A stretch of 38,315 nucleotides of DNA, taken from NCBI GenBank assembly GCA_014304875.1, contig JACRUD010000052.1, positions 1-38,315 of the forward strand, in the 5' to 3' direction. This document shows positions 4,910-25,719 of the stretch, in pieces. The position numbers and the translations under genes are program-made. This DNA is from Vulcanimicrobiota bacterium. Lineage in GTDB: Bacteria > Vulcanimicrobiota > Vulcanimicrobiia > Eremiobacterales > Eremiobacteraceae. Numbering within the stretch: position 1 is the stretch's first letter; every line of letters begins with the position of its first letter. The notes beneath the pieces were generated by a model. That model made no database searches, was not told where the DNA came from, and saw only the letters and a program-made list of their open reading frames with translations.

Positions 4910-6511
4910 TTAATAGCCGTTGCTGCCGGCTTGCGCCGTGTCGCCTTCTCGGCGGTAGACGGCTGTAAGGAAAGCCTGCGTCCGGACCGGGGCACCGCCC
5001 AAAGCCACGGCGGCTGCAAGATGACGTTCCGCAGCAGGCACATTGGCATTCATCAGCGCGAGCATGCCGGCCACGAATCTGCCGGGTTCGTACGACGGGT
5101 CAAGCGCGGCCGCTCTCTTGGCGTCCGTGAACGCAGCCCCGACGTCCCCGTCTTCCATGTCGACGATGGCGAGACTCGTAAACGGTTCGGGCCGGGCGGA
5201 GCGGTTCGCCGCTTCAAGAAACGCGATCCGCGCGTGCGCTTCATCGCCGCGCGCCTGAGCCGCGAGACCGCTGAAATAGGGTCCGCGCCAATCCCGCGGG
5301 GCTTGATCGCTCGCGGCCGCAAAAGCGCTCGCGGCCAAAGAGAGGCGCCCGCTTTCCAGCGCGCCGGCTCCCAGCCGCAACAGTTCTTCCGCGGAGCCGC
5401 GTGACCGCGTCAATGCATTGAGCCGCGATTGCATTGCTTCGGTCGGCTCATCGGAATTCGCGCCGGGCAGCACATGGGTGAAGTTCAGATCCGACGTGAC
5501 TCCCTGCAGGTAGCCGCGCGCATCGCTTGCAAGGTCGGTCAAGGGCGCCGGATGCGATGGCGGCGACAACGTCACCGAAGCTGGATGGCGGGCTTGGACC
5601 TGCGGCGCGGAGGCGATGATTTGGGCCTTCGGCTGCGCCAGCGCCAGCGCTTGGTGCGGCCGGGCGGTCGGCTTGGGGGACGGCGCGACGGTCGCTTGCG
5701 GGGTCGGACTTGGAGTCGCGGTCGGCGCGACCGCCACAACTTTATTCGTCGACGCGGCGCGCGGCGAAGGTGATGGTGCCGCGATCTCTTGTAGGGCGAG
5801 GTTCACCTTGGGGGCCTTGTTTGTGTTAGGCCGGGCGGACGGCCGCCCTTTCTGTGTGGAACCGTTTGCGCGTTTGTGCGGCGCTCCGTTGACTGCCGCC
5901 GCGACGATGCGCTGACCCATCCGCGCGAGCGCCTCGGTGCGGCCCGTCGCGGCCGGCGCGTACGTCGGGTTCTGGGTGAGCTCCGCGTTAAAATCCGCGA
6001 GAGCCGCGGCGCCTAAACCTTCCTGAAGCTCTACAACGGCGAGGTCGTAGTGCAAGAAGTTCGTCTTCGGGGCGAGCGAGAGAGCCGCACGAAGCTGAGC
6101 ATCGGCTTCGGACAGCTTGTTTTCGCGGGCGTAGAGTTGGCCGAGCGCAACGAAGTTCCACGGATTGCGCCTGTCGGCCGCCTCGCCGAGCGTGTAATCG
6201 CGTTCGGCCGCCGCGGTGTCGCTCGCCCGCAACGCCACGTTGCCGGCTCGGTTGTCGACTTGAGCATCGGACGAATCTTGCGCGACCGTCTGCGCGGCCA
6301 GTGCGAGCGCCTGCTGGGTATCCCCGCGTGCCAGAGCGGCTTCGGCGGCGTCGATGGACGCGCTCGAGCCGGCGTCATCTGAGGACACGTCCTGAGCGCC
6401 GTGCCACGGATTCCATTTCTGGGGCAGCATCGCAAAACCGGCAACGACCACGACGCCGATCGAAACGACCGCAGCGATCCACACCACGACGCGCTCGAGT
6501 GTTTGGGCCAT
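4910..6511 (-). CDS. Membrane-anchored TPR-repeat protein with a long Pro/Thr/Ala-rich linker
   Basis: 533 aa. N-terminal TM anchor (VVVWIAAVVSIGVVVVAGFAML) and two Ala-rich TPR-like blocks (e.g. NFVALGQLYARENKLSEADAQLRAALSLAPK; YFSGLAAQARGDEAHARIAFLEAANR), separated by about 150 aa of low-complexity sequence (PSPSPRAAS..PTATPSPTPQATVAPSPKPTARP). Confidence 0.8.
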   Translation of the reverse strand: MAQTLERVVVWIAAVVSIGVVVVAGFAMLPQKWNPWHGAQDVSSDDAGSSASIDAAEAALARGDTQQALALAAQTVAQDSSDAQVDNRAGNVALRASDTAAAERDYTLGEAADRRNPWNFVALGQLYARENKLSEADAQLRAALSLAPKTNFLHYDLAVVELQEGLGAAALADFNAELTQNPTYAPAATGRTEALARMGQRIVAAAVNGAPHKRANGSTQKGRPSARPNTNKAPKVNLALQEIAAPSPSPRAASTNKVVAVAPTATPSPTPQATVAPSPKPTARPHQALALAQPKAQIIASAPQVQARHPASVTLSPPSHPAPLTDLASDARGYLQGVTSDLNFTHVLPGANSDEPTEAMQSRLNALTRSRGSAEELLRLGAGALESGRLSLAASAFAAASDQAPRDWRGPYFSGLAAQARGDEAHARIAFLEAANRSARPEPFTSLAIVDMEDGDVGAAFTDAKRAAALDPSYEPGRFVAGMLALMNANVPAAERHLAAAVALGGAPVRTQAFLTAVYRREGDTAQAGSNGY

Positions 6512-6576: not shown

Positions 6577-9500
6577 GTGACGTTATGCCTAGGGATGAGC
6601 GGCCGCCTTGAGCGAAGGCAGGCGACGACGATGGGTATCGTACTTTCGCTGTTTTTATGCCTTCGCCACCGAGCGGGCCGCGGCCTCATGGCCGCGACAT
6701 CTGCCGCCGTTTTGGTCCTGCCCTCGCTTCCGCTCGCCGTTCCGACGCCAGCGCGGGCAGCAGACGCGCCGCCAGTCCCGGTCGTGACGAATATCAGCGG
6801 CCTGCTGACGGTGCGCAACGCGCACGGCGACGGCCATGAGGTCGCTTCGACTCAACTGCTGCATCAGGGCGACGTCGTTATGACGGGCGTGGACGCGCTC
6901 GCCGCGGTGAATCTTTCCGGCATCGGGAAAGTCCGGCTTGGATCCGCGACCACGGCGCAAATCTTCCGCACCCACGACGATCTTTCGGTTCGACTGACGA
7001 GCGGTGCCTTATGTGTCAACGCCGATGCTGCACACATCACCGTGGCGGCTTCCGCCCTGACTTTGTCCGCCATCTCGGCGAAGACGGATTTCAACGTCGA
7101 GAATCACGCCAACGGCGCGAAAGTCGCGGTCTACCGCGGCGCTGTCGCCGCGACGTCGTCCGGCAAGCCGGTCGGCACGTACAAGGCAGGCGACGCTTTC
7201 AGCGCGCCGCTCCACGGTACTTTGAAGAAAGTCGCCAGCTCTTCGCTTGATCACGATTTTGCCGGCTTGCACTGCCCGGCAGTTGGCGTGGCCCAGGCTT
7301 CCCCGACACCCGCGCCTGTGGCTGAGCAAACACCGGCGGCGAGCGGCGGCGGAGGAGGGGGCGGAGGCGGAATCATCGGGATTCTGCTCGGCCTTGCGGC
7401 GATCGGGGCGGCAGCCGGACATGGCGGGGGTGGGGGCGGAGGCGGGAGCAGCCCGACGTCCCCGCCTACGACGCCAACGCCGACTCCGTCACTGATGCCT
7501 ACCCCTACCCCGACCCCCACTCCAACGGCGACGCCGCCCGGAACGCTGACCGTCAATCCGGCGACTCTCTCTTTTGACGCGGTCGGATCCGGCAACAGCA
7601 AGACCTTCACCGCGTCGGAGAGCAACTACAACGGTACGTTGGTGGCCGTCAGCGACAACCCCCAGCACGCTACTGTCAGCCCGGCGACCGGCGCAGGACC
7701 CAACCAAGTTTTTACGGTGACGCCGGTCGCTGGCGGCACCGCGCACATCATCGTGAGAGACGACCACGGGCAGTCCGCGACCGTCACCGTCAACGTGGCG
7801 CCGCCCGGCGCGCTCGCCGTCAATCCGGCCGCGCTGACGTTCGATAACGCTCGATCCGGACCCCAAAGCTTCACCGCCACGGAAGCGATTTATCTAGGGC
7901 CGATTTTCGCCCGCGGCTGCGCCGGCGTGGCGGCGGTCGATCCGCCGACGGGGAGCGGTCCGACCCAAAGATTTACCGTGACGCCGCAAACGCCCGGCAG
8001 TTGCCAAATCACGGTGACCGACGACCACGGCGGGGTTCAGAGCGTCAGCGTGACGATTTACGGCACCTTAACGGTCAGCCCGACTAGTCTATCGTTCAAC
8101 ACTTTGGGATCGAGTCAGGACATTACGGCTTCGGAGCCGTTCTATTCGGGCAACTTCTCGGCCGTTCCGATGAACTGCGGGGGCATCGCCACCGTGTCAG
8201 GCACCAGCCCAACGTTTACCGTTACGTCGGTCGGCCCCGGCACGTGTACCGTCGTGGTGAGCGACGGCCATGGCGGAAGCGTTTCCGTGAGCGTTACCGT
8301 TGCGCCTCAACCAGGGCCGCTGACGTTGCGCCCTAACTCCGTAACGTTCACAGACGTGGGTGCTGCTAACGCAGCAACGGTCACCGTGTCTGAAACCAAT
8401 TACAGCGGCGCCTTCACGATCGCGAATGACACTTGCTCCGGCACGATCGCGACGATCGGCGCTCCGTCGAGCAACGGGCCCACCGCGACCATACAGATAA
8501 CTCCGCTTTCCACGCCGTCCGGCGGCTCCTGCTCGTTCGCCGTCCGCGACGATCACGGCGGCAGCGCGACCGAAACCGTCACCGTGGGGCCGTTCGGTGC
8601 CATCGTCGCGAATCCGAGCAGCTTCACGCTCACCGTCGGGCAGACCGCGCCGCTGACCATCACCGAATCGAACTACAGCGGGCGCTTCACCCAGAGCGGC
8701 TGCACGGGGATCGCCAGGCTCGATGGTACGAAGCCCAACTTCACGATCACGGCGCTCGCCCCCGGCACTTGTAGTTTTACGATCAATGATGATCACGGGC
8801 AAAGCACGATGATCTCCGTAACCGTAACTGCTGCGTTGACTGTTAATCCAACATCACTTCAGGTTGCCACTGGCACATCGGGGACCTTTACCGCGACTGA
8901 TTCTTCGTGCGGTCCTAGCGATACTATCAGCGCGTCATCAGCCAACACCGCCGTGGCCACCGTCACGCCATCGACGGCGCCGTGCTCGGGTGGCGCGACG
9001 TTCACAGTCACCGGCGTTTCAACTGGAACGACTACGATTTCCGTAACGGACACTTTAGGAGGCACGGCGACCGTCAGCATCGGTGTCGACGTCCCGCCGG
9101 CCGCGCTGAAAAAGCGCGCCGTCGTCGGCAAACATCCTATAACTGCCCCGACCGCGCCGCGCAAAGTCTTGCCGGGTACGCCGCCTTCCGGTAACGCACC
9201 GAGCCGGCCGAATCCGAGCCAGCGTCCGGCTGCCCAGTGGACAGTTCCTGGCGTCGCGGCGCTGATCGTGGGAACCCCAAATCTCGATTTCATCCTCAAC
9301 GGCGCGCCGCAAGCGGTGCCGGTAAGCGAAGCTTTCTACAACGGAATGTTCCATGCGATGAGCTCGAATCCGCAGTCGCTCGCTGTGACGGCGGCATGCG
9401 CCGGCCCGATGTGCACGCTGATCGCTACACCGTCCAAAGCGGGAAGCGGCACCATACGCGTGAGCGACGATCGCGGCACGGTGCGCCTTATCGAGTTCAC

Positions 9501-9603
9501 CGTCGCAGGTCCGCGACAGACCACGCCCGCGCAACCCCCTGCGAAAGTTTCTGCACCTGGAGCGCCGAAGTCGGCCGCGCCCATTCCACCCCATGCGCCA
9601 TAA
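6577..9603 (+). CDS. Giant envelope protein: signal peptide, FecR-like domain, glycine-zipper helix, PT linker, 7 Cys-pair Ig-like (Big_2-like) modules
   Basis: 1008-aa ORF. The start is uncertain (GTG 6577, ATG 6595, 6631 or 6688). Signal-like AAVLVLPSLPLAVPTPARA-AD. Residues about 66-212 fit the FecR/LipL45-type pattern (GDVVMTG..ALAAVNLSGIGKVRLG...LSVRLTSGALCV...DFNVEN..GAKVAVYRGAV...YKAGDAF). Poly-Gly/TM at 257-290, a PTPTPT linker, then repeated modules. It is collinear with the next gene. Confidence 0.85.
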   Translation: MTLCLGMSGRLERRQATTMGIVLSLFLCLRHRAGRGLMAATSAAVLVLPSLPLAVPTPARAADAPPVPVVTNISGLLTVRNAHGDGHEVASTQLLHQGDVVMTGVDALAAVNLSGIGKVRLGSATTAQIFRTHDDLSVRLTSGALCVNADAAHITVAASALTLSAISAKTDFNVENHANGAKVAVYRGAVAATSSGKPVGTYKAGDAFSAPLHGTLKKVASSSLDHDFAGLHCPAVGVAQASPTPAPVAEQTPAASGGGGGGGGGIIGILLGLAAIGAAAGHGGGGGGGGSSPTSPPTTPTPTPSLMPTPTPTPTPTATPPGTLTVNPATLSFDAVGSGNSKTFTASESNYNGTLVAVSDNPQHATVSPATGAGPNQVFTVTPVAGGTAHIIVRDDHGQSATVTVNVAPPGALAVNPAALTFDNARSGPQSFTATEAIYLGPIFARGCAGVAAVDPPTGSGPTQRFTVTPQTPGSCQITVTDDHGGVQSVSVTIYGTLTVSPTSLSFNTLGSSQDITASEPFYSGNFSAVPMNCGGIATVSGTSPTFTVTSVGPGTCTVVVSDGHGGSVSVSVTVAPQPGPLTLRPNSVTFTDVGAANAATVTVSETNYSGAFTIANDTCSGTIATIGAPSSNGPTATIQITPLSTPSGGSCSFAVRDDHGGSATETVTVGPFGAIVANPSSFTLTVGQTAPLTITESNYSGRFTQSGCTGIARLDGTKPNFTITALAPGTCSFTINDDHGQSTMISVTVTAALTVNPTSLQVATGTSGTFTATDSSCGPSDTISASSANTAVATVTPSTAPCSGGATFTVTGVSTGTTTISVTDTLGGTATVSIGVDVPPAALKKRAVVGKHPITAPTAPRKVLPGTPPSGNAPSRPNPSQRPAAQWTVPGVAALIVGTPNLDFILNGAPQAVPVSEAFYNGMFHAMSSNPQSLAVTAACAGPMCTLIATPSKAGSGTIRVSDDRGTVRLIEFTVAGPRQTTPAQPPAKVSAPGAPKSAAPIPPHAP
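7345..7446 (+). other. Poly-Gly-flanked glycine-zipper hydrophobic segment (GGGGGGGGG-IIGILLGLAAIGAAAG-H-GGGGGGGG)
   Basis: Direct translation of residues 257-290 of the 6577..9603 ORF. A near-identical segment occurs in the paralog at 10413-10502. Confidence 0.8.
7540..9090 (+). repeat. Intragenic tandem array of six 80-94 aa modules (a seventh at 9256-9504 after a basic Pro-rich linker)
   Basis: Modules start at GTLTVNPATLSF, GALAVNPAALTF, GTLTVSPTSLSF, GPLTLRPNSVTF, GAIVANPSSFTL and AALTVNPTSLQV. Shared signatures are SE(S/P/T/A)NY(N/S)G, two Cys in all but the first module, and (V/I)xD(D/G)HG(G/Q)..V.VTV. Confidence 0.8.
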
Positions 9604-9692
9604 AGCGTTCTGACGCGAAGAGGCCGACGAATCAACCGCCCGCACGCTAGCTGCGGAAAAGACTCCAGCTAACGGGCGCGAACGACCGGCTA

Positions 9693-12086
9693 ATGCGGAT
9701 GACTCGGCCGCGCATATCTGAGTTCGGAAAGCGACGCGTTCGGGCTTGTATTTGTGCGACGCTCGCCTGGGCTCTCCTCGCGCCGCCCGTCGCCGCTTTG
9801 ACGGCGCCGTCGCCGACTTCGTCGCCAACCTATTCGCAGCCGGTCCCGGTCGTCACCAACATAAGCGGCGTTCTCATGGTGCGCAGTTCGCACGGCGCGG
9901 CGCACGACGTGGCCTCTTCGCATATCTTGCAGCGCGGCGACGTCGTGATGACCGGGATCGGCGCACTTGCGGCGGTCAACTTGGAAGGCGCCGGCAAAGT
10001 GCGGCTTGGGCCTGCCACGACCGTACGCGTCTTTCAAACCGGCCGCGATTTGTCGATCCGCCTAACCGGCGGAGCGTTGTGCGTCAGCGCGGCCACCGCG
10101 CATATCAAAATCGCGACTTCGCGCCTGACGCTGGCGGTCGCATCGGGACCGGCCGACTTCAATATCGAAAACCTTTCCGACGGCGCCAAAGCGGCGGTCT
10201 ATCGGGGAAGCGTCCTCATTCGCGCCGGCGGCACTCCCAGCTCGACCTACAAAGCCGGCGAGGCGTTTGCCGCGCCGCTGCGCGGGTCGGTGCGCAAAGT
10301 GTCGCCGACCTCGTTGACGCGCGACTTTGCCGCTCTGCGTTGCCCGGACGCCGCCGTTGTCGCCCAAGCGTCGCCCGCGCCCGCCGCTGCGCCGCAACAG
10401 CAGGCTGCACCCGGCGGCGGCGGAGCCGGCGGAATCATCGGCGTGCTGCTTGGAATCGCGGCCATCGGCGCCGCCGCGGGTCATGGCGGTGGCGGAGGCG
10501 GTTCATCGACACCTGGGGCGCCGGCCCCGGGATCGTTGACGATATCCCCCTCGGCGCTGACTTTCGCCGGTCCTTCAGCAGCGCAGCAGCCGGTGGCCGT
10601 CAGCGAGAGCAACTATTCCGGCCCCTTCACCATTACCGCCCCGGCGTGCGCTGCGGTCGCAACTTTTAATCCGGCCGCGGGCAGCGGGCCGGCCGCGACG
10701 TTCCAAGTGTCACCTAAAGGAGTCGGAAGCTGCACGGCCACCATCGCCGACAACCATGGCGGAGGGCAGCAGCTCGGCGTGACGGTCTACGGAGCCTTGA
10801 CGACGGACAAAAGCAGTCTTACCTTCACCGACCTGGGCTCCGCGCATAGCCAGCAGTTCACGGCATTCGAACCGCAATACGGCGGACCGATCGCGGCCGC
10901 CGCCGCGAATTGCAACAACGTCGCTTCGGTGGCGCCTGCCCAAGCCAACGCGCCGGCCGCGTTCACCGTCACGCCCATAGCGTCCGGCACCTGCTCCGTT
11001 ACGCTGACGGACAACCACGGCGGCACGGTAAGCGTACCGGTGACCGTCGGTCCTTTCGGTCCGGTGGTAGCCGCCCCAAATACGGTCAGCCTCACCTCCA
11101 TCGGAGCTACCCAATCGATATCCGTGAGCGAAGCGAACTACACCGGAAACTTCTTTGTTGACGCCGGCAGCTGCGCCGGCATCGCGAGCGTCACCGGCTC
11201 AAGCCCCAGTTTCGTCGTCACCGCAACTGCACCGGGTAATTGCAGTCTCAGCATCACGGACGGACATGGCGGCGGCGCGAACGTCAGGATCTTCATAACC
11301 ACAGGAGCATTGGCCCTGACTCCCAACACTCTTCAGTTCCCTAGTGGCGCGGGCCAAAACGGTTCGTTTACAGCGAACGATCCGGCATGTACTTTTCCAG
11401 GTTCCATCTCGGCCACGGTCACTTCCGGGCAAGCGGTCGTGACGGTGTCGCCGTCGACGCCGGTGTTTTGCCTTGGGGCGATTACATTTAGCGTCACCAC
11501 CGGCACTGACGGCCGGGCTACCATTACCGTCACCGACACGGCCGGCGGCACTGCGGTCGTCAGCGTGGGCGTCGGAACGACACCTTTGGCTGTGAAAAGA
11601 CATCTGCTGGGCGCGCGTCTGCCGCTCAAGCGATCTCAGCCGCCGACTGTCCACGCGGGTGCCGCTCGCCAGCTGCCTGCGCCTGAGCGCCAACGCTCCA
11701 TCGCAAACGTGGCACAGCAGCCGCCGTCGCTCGCAGGGCCCGATCAGTCGTTCTCGCTGAGCCGTGCCGCGCTGTCGCTGAACCTTTCAGGACCCGGCCA
11801 ATCGCTGACGGTCGGCGAACCGGGATATTCGAGCGCTTTCCATGCCGTGAGTTCCGACCCTAGCATATTGACGGTGACAGCGACGTGCCAAGGACCGACC
11901 TGCGCGTTGATTCTGACCCCACTGCGGGTAGGCAGCGGAACGATCAGCGTCCGGGATGACCGCGGCGACGTGCGCACGGTTCCGTTCGCCGTCACGGATC
12001 ATAAAATGCCGAGCATGCATCCGCCTGTGCTGAAAACGCCGCCGTCTCCTACGCCGCCCAGACCGCATTCGGCGCCGCCTCATTGA
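9693..12086 (+). CDS. Paralog of the preceding giant envelope protein (FecR-like domain, glycine-zipper helix, 5 Ig-like modules)
   Basis: 797-aa ORF with the same order of elements. Signal-like ACICATLAWALLAPPVAA and a FecR-like region alignable residue by residue with the first gene (VPVVTNISGVLMVR...GDVVMTGIGALAAVNLEGAGKVRLG...LSIRLTGGALCV...DFNIEN..GAKAAVYRGSV...YKAGEAF). It also has DFAALRCP, GGGGAGG-IIGVLLGIAAIGAAAG-H-GGGGGG, modules with SESNYSG / DNHGG, and a final module after a basic linker plus a Pro-rich tail. Confidence 0.85.
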   Translation: MRMTRPRISEFGKRRVRACICATLAWALLAPPVAALTAPSPTSSPTYSQPVPVVTNISGVLMVRSSHGAAHDVASSHILQRGDVVMTGIGALAAVNLEGAGKVRLGPATTVRVFQTGRDLSIRLTGGALCVSAATAHIKIATSRLTLAVASGPADFNIENLSDGAKAAVYRGSVLIRAGGTPSSTYKAGEAFAAPLRGSVRKVSPTSLTRDFAALRCPDAAVVAQASPAPAAAPQQQAAPGGGGAGGIIGVLLGIAAIGAAAGHGGGGGGSSTPGAPAPGSLTISPSALTFAGPSAAQQPVAVSESNYSGPFTITAPACAAVATFNPAAGSGPAATFQVSPKGVGSCTATIADNHGGGQQLGVTVYGALTTDKSSLTFTDLGSAHSQQFTAFEPQYGGPIAAAAANCNNVASVAPAQANAPAAFTVTPIASGTCSVTLTDNHGGTVSVPVTVGPFGPVVAAPNTVSLTSIGATQSISVSEANYTGNFFVDAGSCAGIASVTGSSPSFVVTATAPGNCSLSITDGHGGGANVRIFITTGALALTPNTLQFPSGAGQNGSFTANDPACTFPGSISATVTSGQAVVTVSPSTPVFCLGAITFSVTTGTDGRATITVTDTAGGTAVVSVGVGTTPLAVKRHLLGARLPLKRSQPPTVHAGAARQLPAPERQRSIANVAQQPPSLAGPDQSFSLSRAALSLNLSGPGQSLTVGEPGYSSAFHAVSSDPSILTVTATCQGPTCALILTPLRVGSGTISVRDDRGDVRTVPFAVTDHKMPSMHPPVLKTPPSPTPPRPHSAPPH
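10413..10502 (+). other. Poly-Gly-flanked glycine-zipper hydrophobic segment of the paralog
   Basis: Residues 241-270 read GGGGAGGIIGVLLGIAAIGAAAGHGGGGGG. This matches the segment at 7345-7446. Confidence 0.8.
10530..11573 (+). repeat. Intragenic tandem array of four Ig-like modules (a fifth at about 11754-11993)
   Basis: Modules start at GSLTISPSALTF, GALTTDKSSLTF, GPVVAAPNTVSL and GALALTPNTLQF. They carry SESNYSG / FEPQYGG / SEANYTG, two Cys per module, and IADNHGG / LTDNHGG / ITDGHGG / VTDTAGG. Confidence 0.8.
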
Positions 12087-12919
12087 GCATCGACCTCGAT
12101 CTTGAAGATACTTTCGGGGACATCGTCCGCAAGGCGAGTAAAGGCCGCGCCGTATCCGCGCAGCGCCTTGCCGAAGCGGCGGGCATATCGCAAGGACGGC
12201 TGCAGTCGCTGTTAGCGGATTCCGAAAAGCCCGACGACGGCGAAGCCCGAGCTATCGCCCGGGCGTTCGGCCTGGACGGCGGCAAATTGGCCGACATCGC
12301 GCGCGGCCGCTGGCGGCCGCCGGCGGTCGACATCGGGGCGCATCTCGACACTCAAATCAACACACCGCATTCGAGCAACGGCTACTTCGTGATCCTAAAG
12401 GAAGCTAAGGTCGCCGCCTTGATCGATCCGGGCGGAAACGCGCGCAACATCGTGACGACGGTGCAGCGCTCCCCAGTCGCGCTTCAATACATCTTGCTCA
12501 CTCACAAACATCCCGACCACGTCGATGCGCTGTCCGACGTGCGCAAGGCGTTTCCGCAAGCGCACGTCGTCGTGCACCGACTGGACGCGCCGGCCATCGG
12601 TCCCGACGTACGCGATGCGATCGCCATCGTCGACGGCGACGCGCTGCCCTTCGCCGACGGTGAAATCCGCCTCTTGCACACCCCCGGCCACACCGATGGA
12701 TCGTGCTGCTTCCTCTTCAAAGGCGCCCTTTTCAGCGGCGACACGCTCTTCGCAGGTTCCGTGGGCGGGGTCTTCGGCGAGCGCTTCGGCTACGAAGATT
12801 TACTGCAGGGAATCGACGGCAAGCTGTTTGCCTTGCCTCGGGACACGATCGTGCTGCCAGGCCATGGACCGCCGTCGACCATCGAAGGTGAACGGGCACA
12901 CAACCCGTTCTTCGCCTGA
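12083..12919 (+). CDS. XRE-type HTH domain fused to an MBL-fold (glyoxalase II-like) metallo-hydrolase
   Basis: 278 aa. The N-terminal ~85 aa fit an XRE HTH (IVRKASKGRAVSAQRLAEAAGISQGRLQSLLADSEKPDDGEARAIARAFGLD). The C-terminal part is MBL-fold, with the HxHxDH motif (LTHKHPDHVDAL) and later HTPGHTDGS and GDTLFAGSVG. The TTG start (12083-12085) overlaps the TGA stop (12084-12086) of the upstream gene. There is no ATG alternative near the 5' end. Confidence 0.85.
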   Translation: MSIDLDLEDTFGDIVRKASKGRAVSAQRLAEAAGISQGRLQSLLADSEKPDDGEARAIARAFGLDGGKLADIARGRWRPPAVDIGAHLDTQINTPHSSNGYFVILKEAKVAALIDPGGNARNIVTTVQRSPVALQYILLTHKHPDHVDALSDVRKAFPQAHVVVHRLDAPAIGPDVRDAIAIVDGDALPFADGEIRLLHTPGHTDGSCCFLFKGALFSGDTLFAGSVGGVFGERFGYEDLLQGIDGKLFALPRDTIVLPGHGPPSTIEGERAHNPFFA

Positions 12920-13014: not shown

Positions 13015-13092
13015 GTAGCGACCGCGGCTGTGGAGCGTGGTGTGACGCCGCTTGCAGAGGCCGGGTTCTCGCCGCTACCGAAGCAGAGCGAA

Positions 13093-14028
13093 ATGAGCTT
13101 CTCTTCGATCGGACGCCGCACAATCGTGCTATTTTTGGCCTTCGCCGCGCTGGCGGGATGCAGCACCAACGGCGGCTTCGGCAACGCGGGCGCCGGCCAA
13201 TTCCCGCCCGGAAACCAAAACGGCCCGCTCAACTCAAGCCAACAAAATCCCGCTGGTTCACCGCCGCCGTCCGGATCGGACGCCGCGGGCGACCAGCCTT
13301 CCGGGTTCTCGCCGTCGCCCGGTTCAACGGCGACCCCGGTCACCGCGCTCTCGGTCGACAGCGCAAGCGCCCGGCTCGCCTTCGACGCGGCCGCAAACGT
13401 GTCCGATCGCCTGCTCGACGTCGCCTTTGCGTTGAAGAATCCAGGCGCCAAGCCGCTCACGGCCAAGAGCTTGACCCTGACGGCCGAGGGTAAGCCTGTC
13501 GGCGCGGTCAGCTTCGTCGTCACTGCGCTGCCCAACCAGACCACTCAAGTGACCGCCGCGGCGATACCGCTGGCGAAAGGTCAGGATGCCGCAAAGCTGC
13601 AGCGGCTGACTTTGGTGTTCGCGGACGCAGCCGGAAAGATGCTGGCCCAAAGCTCTATCGACGCGCCGCATCCCGGCCTCACTTTCGGACCGCTCGATGA
13701 GACGCATCCCGCGGGGCCGCCCAGCATCGACAGCCTGGACGTCGAAAGAGTCGCAGAACTAGGCCGCCATCCTCGCTACGAGTGCAGCTTCGCGATCACG
13801 AATCCAGGAAAAGAGAAGTTGTCGATCGCGAAGGTGACTATTGCGCCGCCCAAGGGGCGAGCAACGGATGCTGCTATCGGCGTGGACGTCCCGCCGCGCA
13901 CGATGAGCGGGATCATCACCGTTGTCCTTCCCTACGGAGGCAAATCCTTGCCGGCCGGCAAGTACACCGCGACGGCGACCGGTCGAGCGGGTGAAGTCAT
14001 AACCAAAGCCAGCGCCGAGTTGATGTAG
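13093..14028 (+). CDS. Lipoprotein of unknown function with an internally duplicated beta-sandwich-like domain
   Basis: The ORF track starts at GTG 13030, inside the REP element. ATG 13093 gives MSFSSIGRRTIVLFLAFAALAGC, a classical lipoprotein signal with lipobox LAGC. A Gly/Pro/Ser-rich linker is followed by two similar halves (LDVAFALKNPGAKPLTAKSLTLTAEGKPVG and YECSFAITNPGKEKLSIAKVTIAPPKGRAT). Confidence 0.75.
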   Translation: MSFSSIGRRTIVLFLAFAALAGCSTNGGFGNAGAGQFPPGNQNGPLNSSQQNPAGSPPPSGSDAAGDQPSGFSPSPGSTATPVTALSVDSASARLAFDAAANVSDRLLDVAFALKNPGAKPLTAKSLTLTAEGKPVGAVSFVVTALPNQTTQVTAAAIPLAKGQDAAKLQRLTLVFADAAGKMLAQSSIDAPHPGLTFGPLDETHPAGPPSIDSLDVERVAELGRHPRYECSFAITNPGKEKLSIAKVTIAPPKGRATDAAIGVDVPPRTMSGIITVVLPYGGKSLPAGKYTATATGRAGEVITKASAELM

Positions 14029-19459: not shown

Positions 19460-20737
19460 TTGTCGACCCGCATCGCTTCGACCGGCAACGTGATCTTCGC
19501 GCGCACCTTCGCGGCGTTTCGCCATCGGAACTACCGTCTCTACTTCGGCGGCCAAACGCTATCGCTGATCGGGACGTGGATGCAGATCGTGGCCAGCGGC
19601 TGGCTCGTGCTGCGCATCACAGACTCCGCTTTCTTGCTGGGCGTCGTCACCGCCATGGAGTCCTTGCCGTCGCTTTTCCTCTCGCTGTTCGCGGGCGCTT
19701 TGGCTGACACGCTCGACCGCCGCCGCATCGCGATGTGGACGCAATCGCTGGCGGGCATGCAGGCTCTCGCCCTCGGCATTTTGGTGATCACGCACCACGC
19801 CACTTTCTGGAACGTCTTTTGGCTCGCGCTTTTCGCCGGATTGGTGAACGCGATCGATCTGCCCGTACGCCAATCGCTGGTCTACGACCTCGTCGGCAGG
19901 CGCGACATCCTCAATGCCATCGCGCTTAACTCGATGCTTTTCAACGTCGCGCGGATCATCGGGCCCGCGATCGCCGCCATCATAATCGCGCGCGCCGGCG
20001 AGGCGGTCAACTTTTTCGCGAACGCGACATCGTACATATTCGTGGTGTTCGCGCTAGGCGCTATGCGGCTGAACGACGGAGCGGGCAAACCCCAGCGTCG
20101 TGAGAACGTCTACGATCAGATGGCGCAAGGCGTCCGCTATGTCGTTCACCACCCGTTGCTCGCTCGGCTTTTCGCGGGGATCGTCGTGTTCAGCATCTTC
20201 GGCTTCAACTATATCCTCTTGATGCCGGTGTTCGCTCGTTTCACGCTCCACGGCGGCGCCAACACGCTCGGTCTCCTGCTCACCTGCCTGGGAATAGGCG
20301 CTTTGGGCGGGTCTTTCACGATGGCCGGACGGCGCAAGGGATCCATGCGGACGCTTGTCATCATGGCCTTCGTTTTTCCGATCTCCCTGATCGCGTTCGC
20401 CTATTCACCGACGCTCCTAGTCGCGATCTTCACCGTTATGGGCCTGGGATACGCGATGATACTTTTCGTCGTCCGCTTTTCCACGTTCTTGCAGATCGAG
20501 GTGCCCGACGCGATGCGCGGCAGGGCAATGGGGCTGTACAACACGTGCATGATGGGCCTGGCTCCGATCGGAGCGTTGCAGGCCGGAGCGTTCGCGCAGG
20601 CGCTCGGCGCCGGCCGGGCGCTGGCCATCGGCGCCGCCGTCTGTGTGGTCGCGACCCTCGCGCTGCTTTTCTTCCCCAGACGCACCGTCTCGCAGTCCAT
20701 CGTCCGGACGTCGGCCGGCAGCGGCGCAGCGAGATGA
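19460..20737 (+). CDS. MFS_3 (EntS / transmembrane secretion effector-like) transporter
   Basis: 425 aa with about 12 hydrophobic segments and an N-terminus typical of the family (FAAFRHRNYRLYFGGQTLSLIGTWMQIVASGWLVL). The start is TTG. The TGA stop (20735-20737) overlaps the ATG of the next gene. Confidence 0.85.
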   Translation: MSTRIASTGNVIFARTFAAFRHRNYRLYFGGQTLSLIGTWMQIVASGWLVLRITDSAFLLGVVTAMESLPSLFLSLFAGALADTLDRRRIAMWTQSLAGMQALALGILVITHHATFWNVFWLALFAGLVNAIDLPVRQSLVYDLVGRRDILNAIALNSMLFNVARIIGPAIAAIIIARAGEAVNFFANATSYIFVVFALGAMRLNDGAGKPQRRENVYDQMAQGVRYVVHHPLLARLFAGIVVFSIFGFNYILLMPVFARFTLHGGANTLGLLLTCLGIGALGGSFTMAGRRKGSMRTLVIMAFVFPISLIAFAYSPTLLVAIFTVMGLGYAMILFVVRFSTFLQIEVPDAMRGRAMGLYNTCMMGLAPIGALQAGAFAQALGAGRALAIGAAVCVVATLALLFFPRRTVSQSIVRTSAGSGAAR

Positions 20738-22296
20738 CGCTGCGCCGCCTTTTCAGGCAGGCATGCGCCGCGCTGACGTGCGCCGCTTTGGGCGCGCTTC
20801 AACCATACCAGGCAGCGGCGACGCCGTCATCGGCTTCATTGCTGGCAGCGGCTGCTGGCCAATCACCGCCGACGACAAGCGACGCCGCTTCGCTTGCCAA
20901 GACGGTCGACGCGATCGCACGCCGGTCTCCGATGAGGACCGCCCAGTTGGGCGTCTCGATCGTCCAGGCCACCACCGGCCGCACGCTCTTGAGCCGCTTG
21001 GCCGATAGCGAGTTCGCGCCGGCTTCCAATTTCAAGCTGCTCGTCGGCGCTGCGGCGCTGGCATATCTCGGTCCTCACTTCCGCTACACGACGTCCGTGA
21101 TCGCGCGCGGCGTGATCGCAGACGGCGTACTGAAAGGGGATCTCATCCTGGTCGGGGGCGGCGACCCGCTGCTCTCACGCGATGATCTGCGAGCGGCCGC
21201 GGCCGCCGTCGCGCGCTTCGGGATCAGCAAGGTGGCGGGATCGGTGTTGGGCGATGCATCGCTTTTCGACGGCCAGCGATACGGCGGCGGCTGGGCGTGG
21301 GATGACATGCCCTACTACTATCAACCTCCCATCGAGGCTCTCGCCGTGGATGAGGGTACGGTCGGCGTGACGGTGAGCGCGGGGAAGGCTCCAGGCGATC
21401 CACTAGCGGCGACGATCGAACCCAACGGCAACGTGATGACGCTTGCGGTTCGGGCGCTGACCACGCCCCGCGGCGGCAAAAACGACGTTGATTGTTTTCG
21501 CAGCCCTGGCCTGACCGAGATCATCATCGTCGGCCACTACCCGATAAGCGCAGGGCCGACCACTTTTCGCTGTGCCGTGAACGACTCCACCGACTACGCG
21601 ACCGGCGTCTTCCGCCAGGTTCTGCGCGATGGCGGAATCGGGAGCGGACAAATGCCACTGGGACCGCCGCCAGCCAACGTCGCGCTTGACGTCACGGACG
21701 CAAGCGCGGCACCGCCGCCTCCGCCCGCCCGCTACCCCGGGTCCACCCTGCTGTGGACGCACGACTCCCCTCCGCTGAACCGGATCATCGCGACGATGAT
21801 GCCGCCCAGCGACAATTTTATCGCCGAACATCTGATGAAGACTTTGCCCGTGGCCGCCCTGGGGGAACGCGGCTCGTTTGACGGCGGCGCGCAAGTCGAG
21901 CGGAAGTTCGTCGCCGGGCTCGGGTTGGATCCCGGCACGATCGACAACGGCGACGGCTCCGGGCTGTCGCAAGGCGATCGCATCACTCCCCACGATCTGA
22001 CCACGATCTTGCGATGGGAGACCTTGAGCTTCACCGGCAAGGACCTGATCTTCGCGCTCGGCAGGCCCGGCATCAGCGGAACCGTCAAGCGGCACCTGCA
22101 GGGAACGGATGCGGTTGGACGCGTCTGGGCCAAAGACGGCTACATTTGGCACGTGTCTACTTTTTCGGGCTACGCCTTCACGCGCCGACACGGCTTGGTC
22201 GTGTTCTCGATCATGTTCAACCAAGCCGTCGGGCTGTTGCGGCCCTTTCAGCGGGCGCAGGATGAGATCGTGAAGGCTATTGTCGATATGCCGTAA
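20734..22296 (+). CDS. dacB: D-alanyl-D-alanine carboxypeptidase/endopeptidase, PBP4 (peptidase S13) family
   Basis: The ORF track starts at 20545 inside the MFS gene. ATG 20734 gives MTLRRLFRQACAALTCAALGAL, a signal peptide. Motifs are SxxK (APASNFKLL), SDN (PPSDNFIAEHL), DGSGLS, and KDG in place of KTG (VWAKDGYIWHVSTFSGY). Confidence 0.85.
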   Translation: MTLRRLFRQACAALTCAALGALQPYQAAATPSSASLLAAAAGQSPPTTSDAASLAKTVDAIARRSPMRTAQLGVSIVQATTGRTLLSRLADSEFAPASNFKLLVGAAALAYLGPHFRYTTSVIARGVIADGVLKGDLILVGGGDPLLSRDDLRAAAAAVARFGISKVAGSVLGDASLFDGQRYGGGWAWDDMPYYYQPPIEALAVDEGTVGVTVSAGKAPGDPLAATIEPNGNVMTLAVRALTTPRGGKNDVDCFRSPGLTEIIIVGHYPISAGPTTFRCAVNDSTDYATGVFRQVLRDGGIGSGQMPLGPPPANVALDVTDASAAPPPPPARYPGSTLLWTHDSPPLNRIIATMMPPSDNFIAEHLMKTLPVAALGERGSFDGGAQVERKFVAGLGLDPGTIDNGDGSGLSQGDRITPHDLTTILRWETLSFTGKDLIFALGRPGISGTVKRHLQGTDAVGRVWAKDGYIWHVSTFSGYAFTRRHGLVVFSIMFNQAVGLLRPFQRAQDEIVKAIVDMP

Positions 22297-23125
22297 GCGG
22301 CATCGACCCATCGGCGCCGACCAAGACCGTATCCGCGCGGTCTCCCGATAAAGAGACGATTCGAGCCGCGGCTTGAGATCCGCGATCGCCGGCGAACTCA
22401 GGAGAGCGCGGCTTGAACTGAAAGAAAGTGGACGGGACGCTCATGTAGGCCGTTCCGTTGCGTCGCACATCGAATTGCTGATGGATGTGGCCGAATAAGA
22501 CGCTCTTGACCTGGGCGGCACCATCGAGGATTTTCAAAAGCGGCTCAGCGTCGGCGATCGTCATGGCGTCCAGCCACGCGGAGCCGACTGGCAGAGGATT
22601 GTGATGCATCGCGACGATCGTCGGCGTCAGCGGCGCGGCCTCAAGGGTCTTCCCGAGCCAGATCCGTTGGTCGGAACCGATACAGCCGCCGTCCTGGCCA
22701 GGCACGGCGCTGTCGAGCAATATCAACCGCCACCCACACGTGTCGAAGACCTGCACGAGCTTGGCATGAGGCGCGAGTTCGCGCCCGGCAAACAGCTTCG
22801 CCATCAGCACAGGATCATCGTGGTTTCCGGGAAGGTAGTGGACGGGCGCGCTCAAGCCGTTCAGCTTATCTCGTAACCGTAAGTAGGATTGTCGACTGCC
22901 GTCCCCCGAGCAGTCGCCGGTGACGAGCACGAATTCGGGATCGGCAGCCGCGGCCAGCAGCACGTCAAGCGTTCGATCGAGCATGGCGTCGGGAGCGACA
23001 TCCCACAGCCGCGCCGCCGGATCTTCGAACAGATGCGTGTCGGATATCTGGATGAAAAACGGCTTGCGAGGCGGCACGTCCCTGATTGTCTTGCAGACGG
23101 CAGCGTAGCGTTCCTCCGGCGCCAA
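22277..23125 (-). CDS. Calcineurin-like metallophosphoesterase (CpdA-type cyclic nucleotide phosphodiesterase-like)
   Basis: 282 aa with the full motif set: QISDTH, VTGDCSGDG, LPGNHDD, AMHHNP, FGHIHQ. The start is TTG at 23125. The 3' end overlaps the convergent dacB-like gene by 20 nt. Confidence 0.85.
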   Translation of the reverse strand: MAPEERYAAVCKTIRDVPPRKPFFIQISDTHLFEDPAARLWDVAPDAMLDRTLDVLLAAAADPEFVLVTGDCSGDGSRQSYLRLRDKLNGLSAPVHYLPGNHDDPVLMAKLFAGRELAPHAKLVQVFDTCGWRLILLDSAVPGQDGGCIGSDQRIWLGKTLEAAPLTPTIVAMHHNPLPVGSAWLDAMTIADAEPLLKILDGAAQVKSVLFGHIHQQFDVRRNGTAYMSVPSTFFQFKPRSPEFAGDRGSQAAARIVSLSGDRADTVLVGADGSMPLTAYRQ

Positions 23126-23161
23126 TCCAGGCGGGGCAGCGCTCCTCGTCGAAGAGCAAAA

Positions 23162-24130
23162 ATGATGTCCGCCCTCACACTTCCCGTCGATGATGGAACT
23201 CGCGCGCGATCGCAGACGGCGGAGCTACAGGTGCTAGCGCAGCGCATCCGGGCTCTTGCAAAGCGCAAGAACGCCGTCATCCTGGCGCACATCTATCAGC
23301 GTCTTGAAGTGCAGCAGGTCTCCGACTTCATCGGCGATAGTTTGAACTTGAGCCGCGAGGCGGCAAAGACGGATGCCGACACGATCGTGTTCTGCGGCGT
23401 TCACTTCATGGCCGAAACGGCCAAGCTGTTGAGCCCCGCGAAGCTCGTGCTGCTGCCGGACATGAAAGCGGGCTGCGGCATGGCGGACATGTTGACCGCG
23501 GACCAGACGCGCGATTTCCGCCGCCGCTATCCCGGCCGGCCCTTGGTCTCTTACGTCAACACGTATGCCGAAGTCAAAGCCGAATCGGATATCTGCTGCA
23601 CGTCGACGAACGCGGTGCGGGTCGTGCGCTCCCTGCCCGATCGCGAAATCTTGTTCGCACCGGATAAGTTTCTGGGGGCATTCGTGCAAAAGAATGCACC
23701 GGAAAAGAAGATCATCTCGTGGGACGGCTATTGTCCCACTCACTTCGTCATCCGCCCGTCGATGGTGGAGGCGCGCAAGAAATTGTCGCCCGACGCGCTC
23801 GTTCTGGCGCATCCAGAATGCGCCCCCGAAGTACTGGAAATGGCGGACTACGTCGGCAGCACGCAAGGCATCATGGATTACGCGGCTCGCAGCCATCGGC
23901 GCGAGTTCATCATCCTGACCGAAGCCGGGCTGCTGATGCGCCTGAAGGACCTGCACCCCGACAAGCGCTTTCACTCGATCGCGCCGTGTCCGCATTGCCC
24001 TTACATGAAGTACGTGGAACTGGAAAAGGTCCTCACTTGCTTGGAGCAGGAGCGCACCCCCATCGAGATCCCGACCGACATCATGAGCCGAGCTCGACTC
24101 AGCATCGAGCGTATGATGGCGATCGCCTGA
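23162..24130 (+). CDS. nadA: Quinolinate synthase NadA
   Basis: Conserved NAVILAHIYQ...VSDFIGDSL...FCGVHFMAETAKLL...CGMADM...VSYVNT...ICCTS.NA...HPEC pattern. The ORF track start (22889) is antisense to the cpdA-like gene. Candidate starts are ATG 23162 or GTG 23231, the latter with GGAG 6 nt upstream. Confidence 0.93.
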   Translation: MMSALTLPVDDGTRARSQTAELQVLAQRIRALAKRKNAVILAHIYQRLEVQQVSDFIGDSLNLSREAAKTDADTIVFCGVHFMAETAKLLSPAKLVLLPDMKAGCGMADMLTADQTRDFRRRYPGRPLVSYVNTYAEVKAESDICCTSTNAVRVVRSLPDREILFAPDKFLGAFVQKNAPEKKIISWDGYCPTHFVIRPSMVEARKKLSPDALVLAHPECAPEVLEMADYVGSTQGIMDYAARSHRREFIILTEAGLLMRLKDLHPDKRFHSIAPCPHCPYMKYVELEKVLTCLEQERTPIEIPTDIMSRARLSIERMMAIA

Positions 24131-25719
24131 CGGTCCCCACGCCCGCGGCGCTTCGCACCGACGTCTTGATCGTCGGCTCGGGGGCCGCCGGTTTGCTGCT
24201 CGCTTTACGCTGCGCCTCTCATGGGCGTTCGGTGGTGCTCGCGACCAAAGGCACCGTCGGGGAATCGAATACGGCTTGGGCGCAGGGCGGCGTCGCGGCC
24301 GCGCTGGACCTGGAAGAGGACTCCGCCTTTGCCCATTTCACCGACACGCTCGCGGCGGGAGCCGGCCTTTGCGACGAGCGGGCTGCTGCCGTGGTCGCGG
24401 CCGAGGCCCCGGAGCGGGTTGAGGAACTGCGCCGGATGGGCGTGCCCTTCGATCTGACGGTTGGCGGCGGCCTTGAGCTCACCCGCGAGGCGGCGCACAG
24501 CCGAGCGCGCGTGGCGCATTCCGCCGATGCGACCGGGCATGCGATTGCGACCACCCTCATAGCCCGCACGTTGCGCCACCCCCACGTCACGCTGCTCGAG
24601 CGCGCAACCGCGATGCAGCTCCGCGTGGACGGCGGCGTGTGTCGTGGAGCGCTGCTGTTATCCGACGGCGCGCCGTTGATCGTTTCGGCGCGCTCTGCGA
24701 CGGTTTTGGCGACCGGCGGCTGCGGCCGCATCTTTGCTCGAACCACGAATCCGCCGGCCGCCACCGGCGACGGGCTCTCGCTCGCACTGCGGGTCGGCGC
24801 ACGGCTGGCGGATCTGGAGTTCGTTCAGTTTCATCCCACCGCTCTAGCGCTTGAAGGCGCCCCAGCCATGCTGGTCTCCGAGGCGGCGCGCGGCGAAGGG
24901 GCGATTCTCACCGATCTTTGCGGACGGCGATTTTGCTTCGACGAAGATCCGCGGGGCGAACTTGCGCCGCGCGACGTCGTCGCCCGGGCGATCTGGCACG
25001 AGCTGCAAAAGCGGTCCAGCCATCACGTCCTGCTCGACATGCGCCCGATCGGTTCGCCCGACATGGTGCGCATGCGTTTTCCGAACATCGCCGAGGCATG
25101 CGCACGGTACGGCATCGATATCGGCGACGCTCCGATCCCCGTCTCTCCTGCGGCGCATTACCACATGGGCGGCATCGTTTCTGACCTGTGGGGCCGCACG
25201 TCGGTGCCGTCGCTGTACGCGCTGGGCGAATGCGCTTGCACCGGTCTGCACGGCGCGAATCGGCTGGCCAGCAACTCGCTGGCTGAATGCCTGGTCTTCG
25301 CCTCGCGCGCCGCCGAAGACATCGGCGCCATGCAGTCACCGCCGGAGAAATCGACTTCGCTCGCAGGGTATCACCCAAGCGATGCGATCTTCGCTCCGGA
25401 ACATCGCCATGCGATCGCCGATACGATGTGGCAGGCGGCCGGAGTGGAGCGCGACGGCCCGAGCCTTACAACGGCCGCGAGCTCTTTGTCGAACTGGCCA
25501 ACGCCGGGGGCGCCCCTTGCGTCCGAGTCACTTGAAGGGCACGCGCTGCTGACCGCAGCCCGCTTGATCGCCGAATCGGCTCTGCTGCGCGAAGAAAGCC
25601 GCGGCAGCCACTTCCGGCGCGACTTTCCGAAGCGAGACGATTCCCGATGGCAGCAACGCATCGTCTGGGACTCCAAAGGACACTCTCTGCAGCCCATCGC
25701 CGGTTTGCGCGAGCGCTGA
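24127..25719 (+). CDS. nadB: L-aspartate oxidase NadB
   Basis: DVLIVGSGAAGLLLAL FAD fold, NTAWAQGGVAA, HSADATGH, ATGG..R....TNP..ATGDG, HYHMGG, GANRLASNSL, ESRGSHFR. No ATG or GTG lies upstream of the FAD motif. The in-frame candidates are CTG 24127 (overlapping the nadA TGA as CTGA) or TTG 24166, which would truncate beta-1. Confidence 0.9.
   Translation: MTVPTPAALRTDVLIVGSGAAGLLLALRCASHGRSVVLATKGTVGESNTAWAQGGVAAALDLEEDSAFAHFTDTLAAGAGLCDERAAAVVAAEAPERVEELRRMGVPFDLTVGGGLELTREAAHSRARVAHSADATGHAIATTLIARTLRHPHVTLLERATAMQLRVDGGVCRGALLLSDGAPLIVSARSATVLATGGCGRIFARTTNPPAATGDGLSLALRVGARLADLEFVQFHPTALALEGAPAMLVSEAARGEGAILTDLCGRRFCFDEDPRGELAPRDVVARAIWHELQKRSSHHVLLDMRPIGSPDMVRMRFPNIAEACARYGIDIGDAPIPVSPAAHYHMGGIVSDLWGRTSVPSLYALGECACTGLHGANRLASNSLAECLVFASRAAEDIGAMQSPPEKSTSLAGYHPSDAIFAPEHRHAIADTMWQAAGVERDGPSLTTAASSLSNWPTPGAPLASESLEGHALLTAARLIAESALLREESRGSHFRRDFPKRDDSRWQQRIVWDSKGHSLQPIAGLRER

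Follow-up and report, generated by a model that had tools for sequence, protein, structure and literature searches.

The described systems closest to the genes treated here are the RTX adhesins of the LapA/MpIBP type, the FecR/PupR anti-sigma regulators, the Leptospira proteins LipL45 and Lsa33, and intimin/invasin together with fibrillar adhesins on Big_2 stalks. The window, meaning the whole stretch of 38,315 nucleotides that was analysed (contig JACRUD010000052.1 of assembly GCA_014304875.1, from a Vulcanimicrobiota bacterium), contains two adjacent genes, A and B, whose products join an N-terminal FecR-type domain, a glycine-flanked hydrophobic segment and a long array of immunoglobulin (Ig)-like modules. 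With a probability of about 0.5, A and B are Sec-exported fibrillar proteins anchored in the envelope, and old paralogs within a family that has so far been seen only in Eremiobacterota. Members of this phylum are abundant in oligotrophic and polar soils and have one cultured representative, and we know of essentially no study of their cell surface.

The retention module of LapA has been modelled on the structure 5IX9 and placed in the periplasm, and the next segment, with two flanking glycine-rich motifs, has been modelled inside a TolC-like pore (bioRxiv 10.1101/198937). In overall logic A and B resemble LapA and MpIBP, combining a small N-terminal beta domain as putative anchor, a Gly-bracketed segment, a long and variable array of Ig extender domains and a distinct distal region. 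Nevertheless, they possess a Sec signal peptide, contain 0 GGxGxDxUx motifs, and lack both a C-terminal type 1 secretion signal and a conserved LapG TAAG site; the sole LapG-like AAAG sits within the hydrophobic segment and is not conserved. No ABC transporter, TolC, LapG or LapD gene was found among the Pfam-scanned window genes; upstream there is only an efflux set of MarR, HlyD-like and MFS genes. The bracketed segment of A and B is hydrophobic, and the hidden Markov model (HMM) of the LapA retention module (NCBIfam NF033682) stays far under its cut-off of 50 bits, with 20.5 bits for B and 16.8 bits for A. LapA-type adhesins may be regarded as the closest functional analogy; A and B are not members of that group.

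In FecR/PupR regulators the same beta fold as in A and B is found in an extracytoplasmic domain beside a membrane-type segment, a position that the domain of A and B would share. Unlike these regulators, A and B have no cytoplasmic anti-sigma or zf-HC2 domain, and only a signal peptide precedes their FecR domain, which stands N-terminal rather than C-terminal to the hydrophobic segment. Instead of an STN-like subdomain (no STN match), a Pro/Ala spacer joins the domain to the segment, and a long Ig-like array follows. The locus also lacks an ECF sigma factor and a TonB-dependent transducer, neither an ECF sigma nor a TonB-dependent receptor gene being present among the Pfam-scanned window genes or in L001, L004 and L008, three other contigs with the same gene order. 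Without an anti-sigma domain, an STN-like subdomain or either of these partners at the locus, the label "sensor-type" used in the initial annotation is not supported: A and B carry a FecR domain but are not FecR-type anti-sigma regulators.

Leptospira LipL45 and Lsa33 share with A and B an exported FecR-type domain that occurs outside an anti-sigma context in an envelope or surface protein. They differ in being lipoproteins without Ig arrays or a Gly-flanked segment, and the match to NCBIfam Lsa33 is negligible (E 0.007, 15.6 bits against a cut-off of 420). Intimin/invasin and the adhesins with Big_2 stalks show an N-terminal periplasmic domain, a membrane-crossing element and a variable C-terminal Ig array; as a further likeness, one module in each of A and B gives the best Big_2 match. 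But A and B contain no beta-barrel (no Pfam match), no LysM and no C-type lectin tip. There is no barrel domain because only ~60 residues, mostly Pro/Ala/Gly plus the one hydrophobic segment, lie between the N-terminal domain and module 1, and for want of a barrel the two proteins are not inverse autotransporters. No description of this domain order was found. Its parts are known kinds of domain and its anchor region is unusual. As had been suspected at first reading, the modules and the domain order match no characterised adhesin or S-layer family.

Architecture of the Two Proteins

The two same-strand open reading frames (ORFs) reported in the initial annotation, of 1008 and 797 amino acids (aa), were recovered at the same coordinates and on the same strand; calling proteins of 797-1008 aa "giant" was an overstatement. 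Their parts are as follows, in window positions.

6577..9603, + strand: ORF A, 1008 aa, longest ORF, GTG start; 7 Ig-like modules; full family member
6577..6759, + strand: A signal peptide region, aa 1-61; hydrophobic core aa 36-56, Kyte-Doolittle 1.95; AxA-type site between ARA and AD
6772..7281, + strand: A FecR-fold domain, aa 66-235, from PVVTNISG to DFAGLHCP; conserved Cys146 and Cys233; Pfam FecR 21.8 bits
7345..7446, + strand: A Gly-flanked segment, aa 257-290; G9-IIGILLGLAAIGAAAG-H-G8
7537..9090, + strand: A modules 1-6, aa 321-838; five standard modules and a penultimate variant (aa 753-838) that passes Pfam Big_2
9091..9252, + strand: A basic Pro-rich linker, aa 839-892, net charge +8; follows the conserved junction VSIGVDVPPAALKKR
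9253..9603, + strand: A last module, Pro-rich tail and stop codon; module aa 893-976, with a C-x-G-P-x-C loop
9693..12086, + strand: ORF B, 797 aa, ATG start; 5 Ig-like modules; full family member
9693..9797, + strand: B signal peptide region, aa 1-35; hydrophobic core aa 16-38; likely cleavage between VAA and LT
9840..10352, + strand: B FecR-fold domain, aa 50-220; conserved Cys130 and Cys217
10413..10502, + strand: B Gly-flanked segment, aa 241-270; G4AGG-IIGVLLGIAAIGAAAG-H-G6
10527..11576, + strand: B modules 1-4, aa 279-628; three standard modules and a penultimate variant; AlphaFold confidence (pLDDT) 82-96 for B3 and B4
11577..11735, + strand: B basic Pro-rich linker, aa 629-681, net charge +7; follows VSVGVGTTPLAVKRH; predicted disordered
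11736..12086, + strand: B last module, Pro-rich tail and stop codon; module aa 682-767

Both proteins show the same domain order, with a signal peptide, the FecR-type domain, an F-x-x-L-x-C-P motif, the Gly-flanked segment, the modules and the tail. Hydropathy located the signal-like N-termini and the poly-Gly-flanked helix that had been proposed for both, and these are the only two hydrophobic segments in each protein. The signal peptides were called from hydropathy and from the homologs, in which signal-peptide-like N-termini are present throughout the family alignment. For ORF A, the ATG codons 19 and 38 are alternative starts. Motif tests on A and B found no RTX repeats, sortase LPxTG, lipobox, PEP-CTERM or terminal aromatic residue, and a promoter and terminator scan gave no signal above shuffle expectation.

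In public records B is called as P0001 (736 aa), which begins at Met62 and omits window positions 9693-9875, which are B codons 1-61. Because neither the signal peptide nor the PVVTNISG motif, invariant in the family, is included from that start, the longer ORF start of B is almost certainly the correct one.

The N-Terminal FecR-Fold Domain

The N-terminal domain, ~175 aa in length, is of the FecR type by HMM and by fold. PF04773 (FecR), with a gathering cut-off of 24, matched B at 25.7 bits over the whole protein, at 26.9 bits over the N-terminal region and at 28.3 bits when the domain was taken alone, and A slightly under the cut-off at 21.8 bits; 11 of 15 family N-termini matched it at E <= 0.01. 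An AlphaFold2 model of the B domain, built on a 15-sequence family alignment, reached pLDDT >90 over residues 52-225 and is all-beta, with two short C-terminal helices that bear the F-x-x-L-x-C-P motif. Compared with the PDB by Foldseek, the model matched the C-terminal cell-surface signalling domain of PupR (6ovk_R, E 4e-5, probability 1.0) and the putative anti-sigma factor BDI_1681 (4m0n/4m0h, E 1-2e-4, probability 1.0), with superpositions over 129-136 columns at a root-mean-square deviation (rmsd) of 2.8-2.9 Å. A sequence-profile search of the PDB also returned 6ovk_R, at E 0.0055. The FecR assignment made at first reading is therefore upheld, at the Pfam threshold for B, and the domain is not a generic beta-helix.

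The motif first written as DFA.L.CP reads DFAGLHCP at A227 and DFAALRCP at B211, and its F, L, C and P show little or no variation in 15 family members. Two Cys residues (C130 and C217 in B) are invariant across the family alignment. The fifth Foldseek match was 5IX9, a "Cell surface anchoring domain", over 63 columns (TM 0.71, target-normalised; rmsd 1.9 Å; probability 1.00). This match covers only the first ~63 residues of the domain, and the sequence-profile match to 5ix9 is weak (E 0.48).

The Glycine-Flanked Segment

Over 53 family sequences the segment follows the pattern G5-9, (I/L)(I/L)G-x-LLG-(I/L)-x-x-(I/L)-x-A-x-A, His, G5-10, in which G, LLG, A, A and GG are invariant positions; in the family alignment its conservation is far above that of a generic anchor. 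Hydropathy on the Kyte-Doolittle scale is ~1.9-2.0 over 19 residues. A rough insertion free energy, obtained with Hessa-scale values and without position weighting, has a median of +1.3 kcal/mol over 19 residues (53 members). Lys and Arg are nearly absent within 20 residues on either side in the same 53 members. Three isolated segments searched against Pfam, including its Gly-zipper families, gave no match at E <= 10 except a chance one to SseC (E 3.2).

Ig-like Modules and the C-Terminal Unit

The count of seven modules in A and five in B was borne out, with a length of 80-95 aa each, and so was the presence of exactly two Cys in 11 of the 12 (module 1 of A has none). Three subtypes can be distinguished, namely a standard one, a penultimate variant (A6, B4) and a last variant with a C-x-G-P-x-C loop (A7, B5). 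The sequence signatures proposed for the modules survive in looser form: E-x-x-Y occurs in 10/12 and D[DNGT]xG in 12/12, against 4/12 for the strict SE[STPA]NY[SNT]G and 5/12 for the strict [VI]xD[DNG]HGG.

AlphaFold predicted B3, B4 and B5 as beta-sandwiches (pLDDT 82-96) and the basic linker as disordered. Foldseek searches with the modules gave 483 PDB matches at E <= 0.001, the top-listed ones being tandem Ig-type arrays; among the matches are the S-layer proteins SbsB, SbsC and EA1, an RTX adhesin repeat, phage fibres, cadherins and titin. Similarity to the S-layer proteins is of the generic tandem-Ig sort, and the structures superpose poorly overall (rmsd >16 Å); the module sequence profile has no significant relative in the PDB (best E 0.04). 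Big_2 (PF02368, cut-off 22.8 bits) matched whole A at 25.4 bits, with its best stretch in module 6 (aa 753-829), and the C-terminal region of B including module 4 at 17.1 bits, under the cut-off; the remaining modules gave weak matches to BiPBP_C, Big_9 and similar Pfam families. The modules are divergent Ig-like domains with Big_2 as the nearest Pfam family. The earlier comparison with Big_2 holds for the fold and the nearest family; the Pfam threshold is passed only by whole A, with its best stretch in module 6.

The module array of the stalk is acidic. As first noted, the last module is set apart by a basic Pro-rich linker (charges +8 and +7) and followed by a Pro-rich tail. Nineteen sequences share the conserved junction V-S-(I/V)-G-V-G-x-x-P-L-x-x-K-(R/H)-(R/H), after which 135-166 residues remain up to the C-terminus.

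Size, Range and Variation of the Family

A search with B returned 32 proteins, and all taxon-named ones belong to Candidatus Eremiobacteraeota or Ca. Eremiobacter antarcticus. With the N-terminal profile, a word-indexed protein database gave 4 matches only, probably owing to poly-Gly words, and an exhaustive HMMER search of 1.84 billion representative proteins was used instead. It yielded 43 representatives at E <= 1e-30, and nearly all full-length ones among them align through the Gly-flanked segment. Beyond lower-scoring short or partial proteins, most of the remaining matches end before this segment; the weaker matches that were inspected are mostly classical anti-sigma-type FecR proteins. 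A pattern search of GTDB genomes added one locus, from Eremiobacteraeota, in an output swamped by A[AG][GS]HGGGG. A module-profile search returned only ~76-148 aa proteins on small contigs, which have little bearing on distribution. The family is so far confined to Eremiobacterota, a range that rests on few named proteins or records, all from Eremiobacteraeota. No member is characterised, and the only names given are "hypothetical" and "FecR domain-containing protein".

Protein length in the family runs from 404 to 1742 aa, with stalks of 0 to ~15 modules. In the smallest complete members, P0044 (493 aa) and P0048 (477 aa), the penultimate-type and last modules are the only ones, behind the N-terminal domain, the segment and a PT linker. 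Since these minimal members keep just the two C-terminal modules and the junction before the last is conserved in 19 sequences, both ends of the protein are conserved and the middle is a variable spacer.

Related modules also occur in a second family outside the window (P0018, P0020, P0022, P0024, P0026, P0030 and P0031), made up of lipoproteins of 613-1021 aa. These consist solely of Cys-paired modules of 80-90 aa, without a FecR domain and without a Gly-flanked segment.

Age of the Duplication

A and B are collinear paralogs, as had been proposed. In BLASTP they align from the N-terminal domain onwards (648 aa, 42% identity, E 1e-106), and a further collinear alignment reaches the C-termini. 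The N-terminal domain and helix are 65% identical at the amino acid level over 222 codons, nearly gap-free. In nucleotides, the N-terminal parts are 64-66% identical and the modules 52-57%, third codon positions being 36-43% identical and thus near saturation. Tandem Repeats Finder detected no module-length tandem repeats at the DNA level. Recent repeat expansion and an assembly artefact are ruled out by the saturated third codon positions together with the lack of such repeats.

A tandem pair like A/B is also present in two other metagenome-assembled genomes (L006 and L007). The first gene of the L007 pair matches A collinearly at 59% identity, and P0010, the second gene of the pair in L006/L007, is 53% identical to B. 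Because A and B are only 42% identical to each other, the duplication predates the split of the window lineage from those of L006 and L007. The pair is evidently an old and retained duplication, in agreement with the initial annotation, which had argued this from moderate DNA identity.

P0010 (L006/L007 4696-6615), a B-type gene, lacks the conserved penultimate and last modules, and its C-terminus is a ~150-aa Arg/Pro/Ala-rich tail. A frameshift was considered as the cause of the missing modules and rejected, as tblastn found no remnant in any frame.

Proposed Arrangement in the Cell Envelope

From the observed anatomy, folds and distribution we infer the localisation, topology, oligomerisation and adhesive role set out here. 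The order of parts poses a topological puzzle: between the signal peptide and a long array of extracytoplasmic type lies a conserved segment that is marginally hydrophobic, uncharged and bracketed by Gly. Signal peptides, Cys pairs in the N-terminal domain and the modules, PT linkers and the existence of module-only lipoprotein paralogs argue that the whole mature protein is extracytoplasmic, and therefore that the internal segment is probably not an ordinary inner-membrane stop-transfer anchor. Such a reading agrees with the marginal hydrophobicity, missing flanking charge and unusually strong conservation of the segment. The envelope location first proposed for A and B is retained as probable on the signal peptides, Cys pairs and lipoprotein paralogs.

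Eremiobacterota are diderm bacteria. The cultured Vulcanimicrobium alpinus has an inner membrane, thin peptidoglycan and an outer membrane covered with lipopolysaccharide (LPS) (PMC9758169), and WPS-2 genomes encode LPS synthesis genes and BamA (PMC6664022). In an envelope of this kind, A and B would be exported through Sec and their signal peptides cleaved. The FecR-fold domain, probably stapled by a putative disulfide, would stay in the periplasm as an anchor or plug, and the Gly-helix-Gly element would be embedded in or threaded through the outer membrane, possibly as a glycine-zipper oligomer or inside a pore. The acidic Ig-like stalk may then serve as a variable spacer that holds the conserved two-module C-terminal head away from the cell. 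The whole would work as LapA/MpIBP-type adhesins do with their retention module, their pore segment between glycine-rich motifs and their Ig extender, but with Sec and not type 1 secretion as the route. Adhesion or surface spacing is the likely role, and the two paralogs, with their unequal stalk lengths, could display two diverged heads at different heights.

Several points weigh against an envelope-anchored surface fibre. The surface location of every family member is a prediction from sequence, and a signal peptide plus one hydrophobic segment, naively read, puts the Ig array in the cytoplasm. The likeness to 5IX9 is limited to 63 residues (E 0.066), the retention-module HMM reaches 20.5 of the 50 bits needed, and AlphaFold confidence is low for the Gly-flanked segment. 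In addition, no adhesive or ligand-binding domain was identified in A or B, and among the genes beside the family in the window and the syntenic loci, none for an outer-membrane translocator or for type 1 or type 5 secretion is conserved.

This lack of an outer-membrane export partner nearby would suit a structural protein whose FecR domain and Ig array both remain periplasmic, for example as an envelope tether or as a scaffold along the membrane. The segment, being marginal, charge-free and Gly/Ala-rich, could insert monotopically and dip into a leaflet of the inner or outer membrane. Peptidoglycan or anionic lipids could be bound by the basic linker and the tail, and the wider window holds two genes for peptidoglycan enzymes (S13 DD-carboxypeptidases), which are not next to A and B. 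Nevertheless, a periplasmic role is unlikely, since 2 to ~17 modules would amount to a contour of ~8-70 nm (at ~4 nm per Ig domain), ill-suited to a compartment of fixed width, and such variation in copy number is a hallmark of exposed fibrillar proteins.

It is decidedly doubtful that the mature protein leaves the cell altogether, for instance by type 2 secretion, and assembles itself into an S-layer-like oligomer or lattice in which a Gly-zipper drives association and not anchoring. The high conservation and GxxxG-like pattern of the segment do suggest helix-helix packing, and SbsB, SbsC and EA1 are among the Foldseek matches of the modules. But these matches are of the generic kind described above, Pfam found no SLH or other S-layer anchoring domain, and the ultrastructure paper on the cultured relative gives an LPS-covered outer membrane with no mention of an S-layer (PMC9758169).

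Very improbable, finally, is a type I inner-membrane protein with a cleaved signal peptide, a periplasmic FecR sensor, a stop-transfer segment and a cytoplasmic Ig array acting in trans-envelope signalling or as a scaffold by FecR-like logic: this is the default topology for a signal peptide and a single internal hydrophobic segment of such hydropathy, the nearest non-family relatives of the N-terminal domain are anti-sigma-type FecR proteins, and an ECF sigma gene lies 2.5 kb downstream of one non-syntenic paralog (L002), but the modules have conserved Cys pairs, come after PT-rich linkers and recur in module-only lipoproteins, no Lys/Arg cluster follows the segment as the positive-inside rule would require, a stalk of 0 to ~15 modules is typical for surface fibres and not for cytoplasmic output domains, Pfam found no signalling output domain, and neither an ECF sigma nor a TonB-dependent transducer lies at the window locus.

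Returning to the envelope-anchored fibre, a more specific version of it is a long shot at present. The FecR-fold domain, stapled by its putative disulfide, and the conserved Gly-flanked segment, as a glycine zipper, might together form a previously undescribed device by which fibres exported through Sec are displayed on the outer membrane of diderm Terrabacteria. Such a device would correspond to the LapA retention module but depend on Sec, and a short oligomerising helix, or a segment threaded through a pore that is not genetically linked, would stand in for the cis beta-barrel of type 5 systems. If the segment is an outer-membrane anchor or threading element, it would represent a new mode of tethering surface fibres in diderms; should it be an ordinary anchor, these proteins would nonetheless be candidates for a major surface protein of the phylum. 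In that role they could offer an antibody or labelling target, or act as a phage receptor.

Genomic Context

The gene order at the locus runs from MarR through an HlyD-like membrane-fusion protein, MFS, a TPR-like gene on the minus strand and the family gene or genes to HTH-MBL, a ~300-aa lipoprotein, ETF-QO and GH125. Two of these neighbours flank A and B directly.

4910..6511, - strand: TPR-like protein, membrane-anchored, divergently transcribed; syntenic, 45% identity to its L001 counterpart
12083..12919, + strand: HTH and metallo-beta-lactamase-fold (HTH-MBL) gene, whose start overlaps the B stop codon by 4 nt

The same order is conserved in four other contigs, and the family gene is single in three of them (1326, 828 and 1219 aa). 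Single copy is the usual state, with the tandem pair limited to a sub-lineage. The initial annotation had found the architecture present twice in the window; a like pair occurs in L006/L007, and elsewhere the gene is mostly in single copy. Divergent members of the phylum keep the family, for which no characterised relative is known, in one and the same place on the chromosome.

In every syntenic locus (L001, L004, L006 and L008) the stop codon of the family gene is abutted or overlapped by the HTH-MBL gene, which suggests that the two are co-transcribed. The syntenic neighbours diverge about as fast as the family gene itself (38-45% identity), and the non-syntenic paralog locus L002 has no neighbour in common with the window locus. 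For these two reasons the neighbourhood is synteny and not evidence of a functional system. A conserved functional partner was considered and rejected as unsupported: the gene downstream in L002 is unrelated to the window lipoprotein, and the TPR and lipoprotein genes are orthologous only within the syntenic loci.

The lipoprotein gene lies at window 13030-14028 (+). Its ~300-aa product has no Pfam match and a LAGC lipobox, is 38% identical to its syntenic L001 counterpart, and likely has its true start at Met in codon 22.

Further along the window, two paralogous genes for S13-family (PBP4-type) D-Ala-D-Ala carboxypeptidases lie within 12 kb of each other, at 20545-22296 (+) and 31994-33703 (-), with a nadA-nadB-nadC cluster between them (22889-26597). 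Positions 1-1200 have a G+C content of 0.53, against ~0.64 elsewhere, and contain short ORFs only, with no tRNA or Rfam match. Positions 34621-37797 (+) encode a regulator-like protein of 1058 aa in which TPR/MalT-like repeats are followed by a C-terminal winged-helix domain (Trans_reg_C) and BTAD, an arrangement like that of SARP/AfsR.

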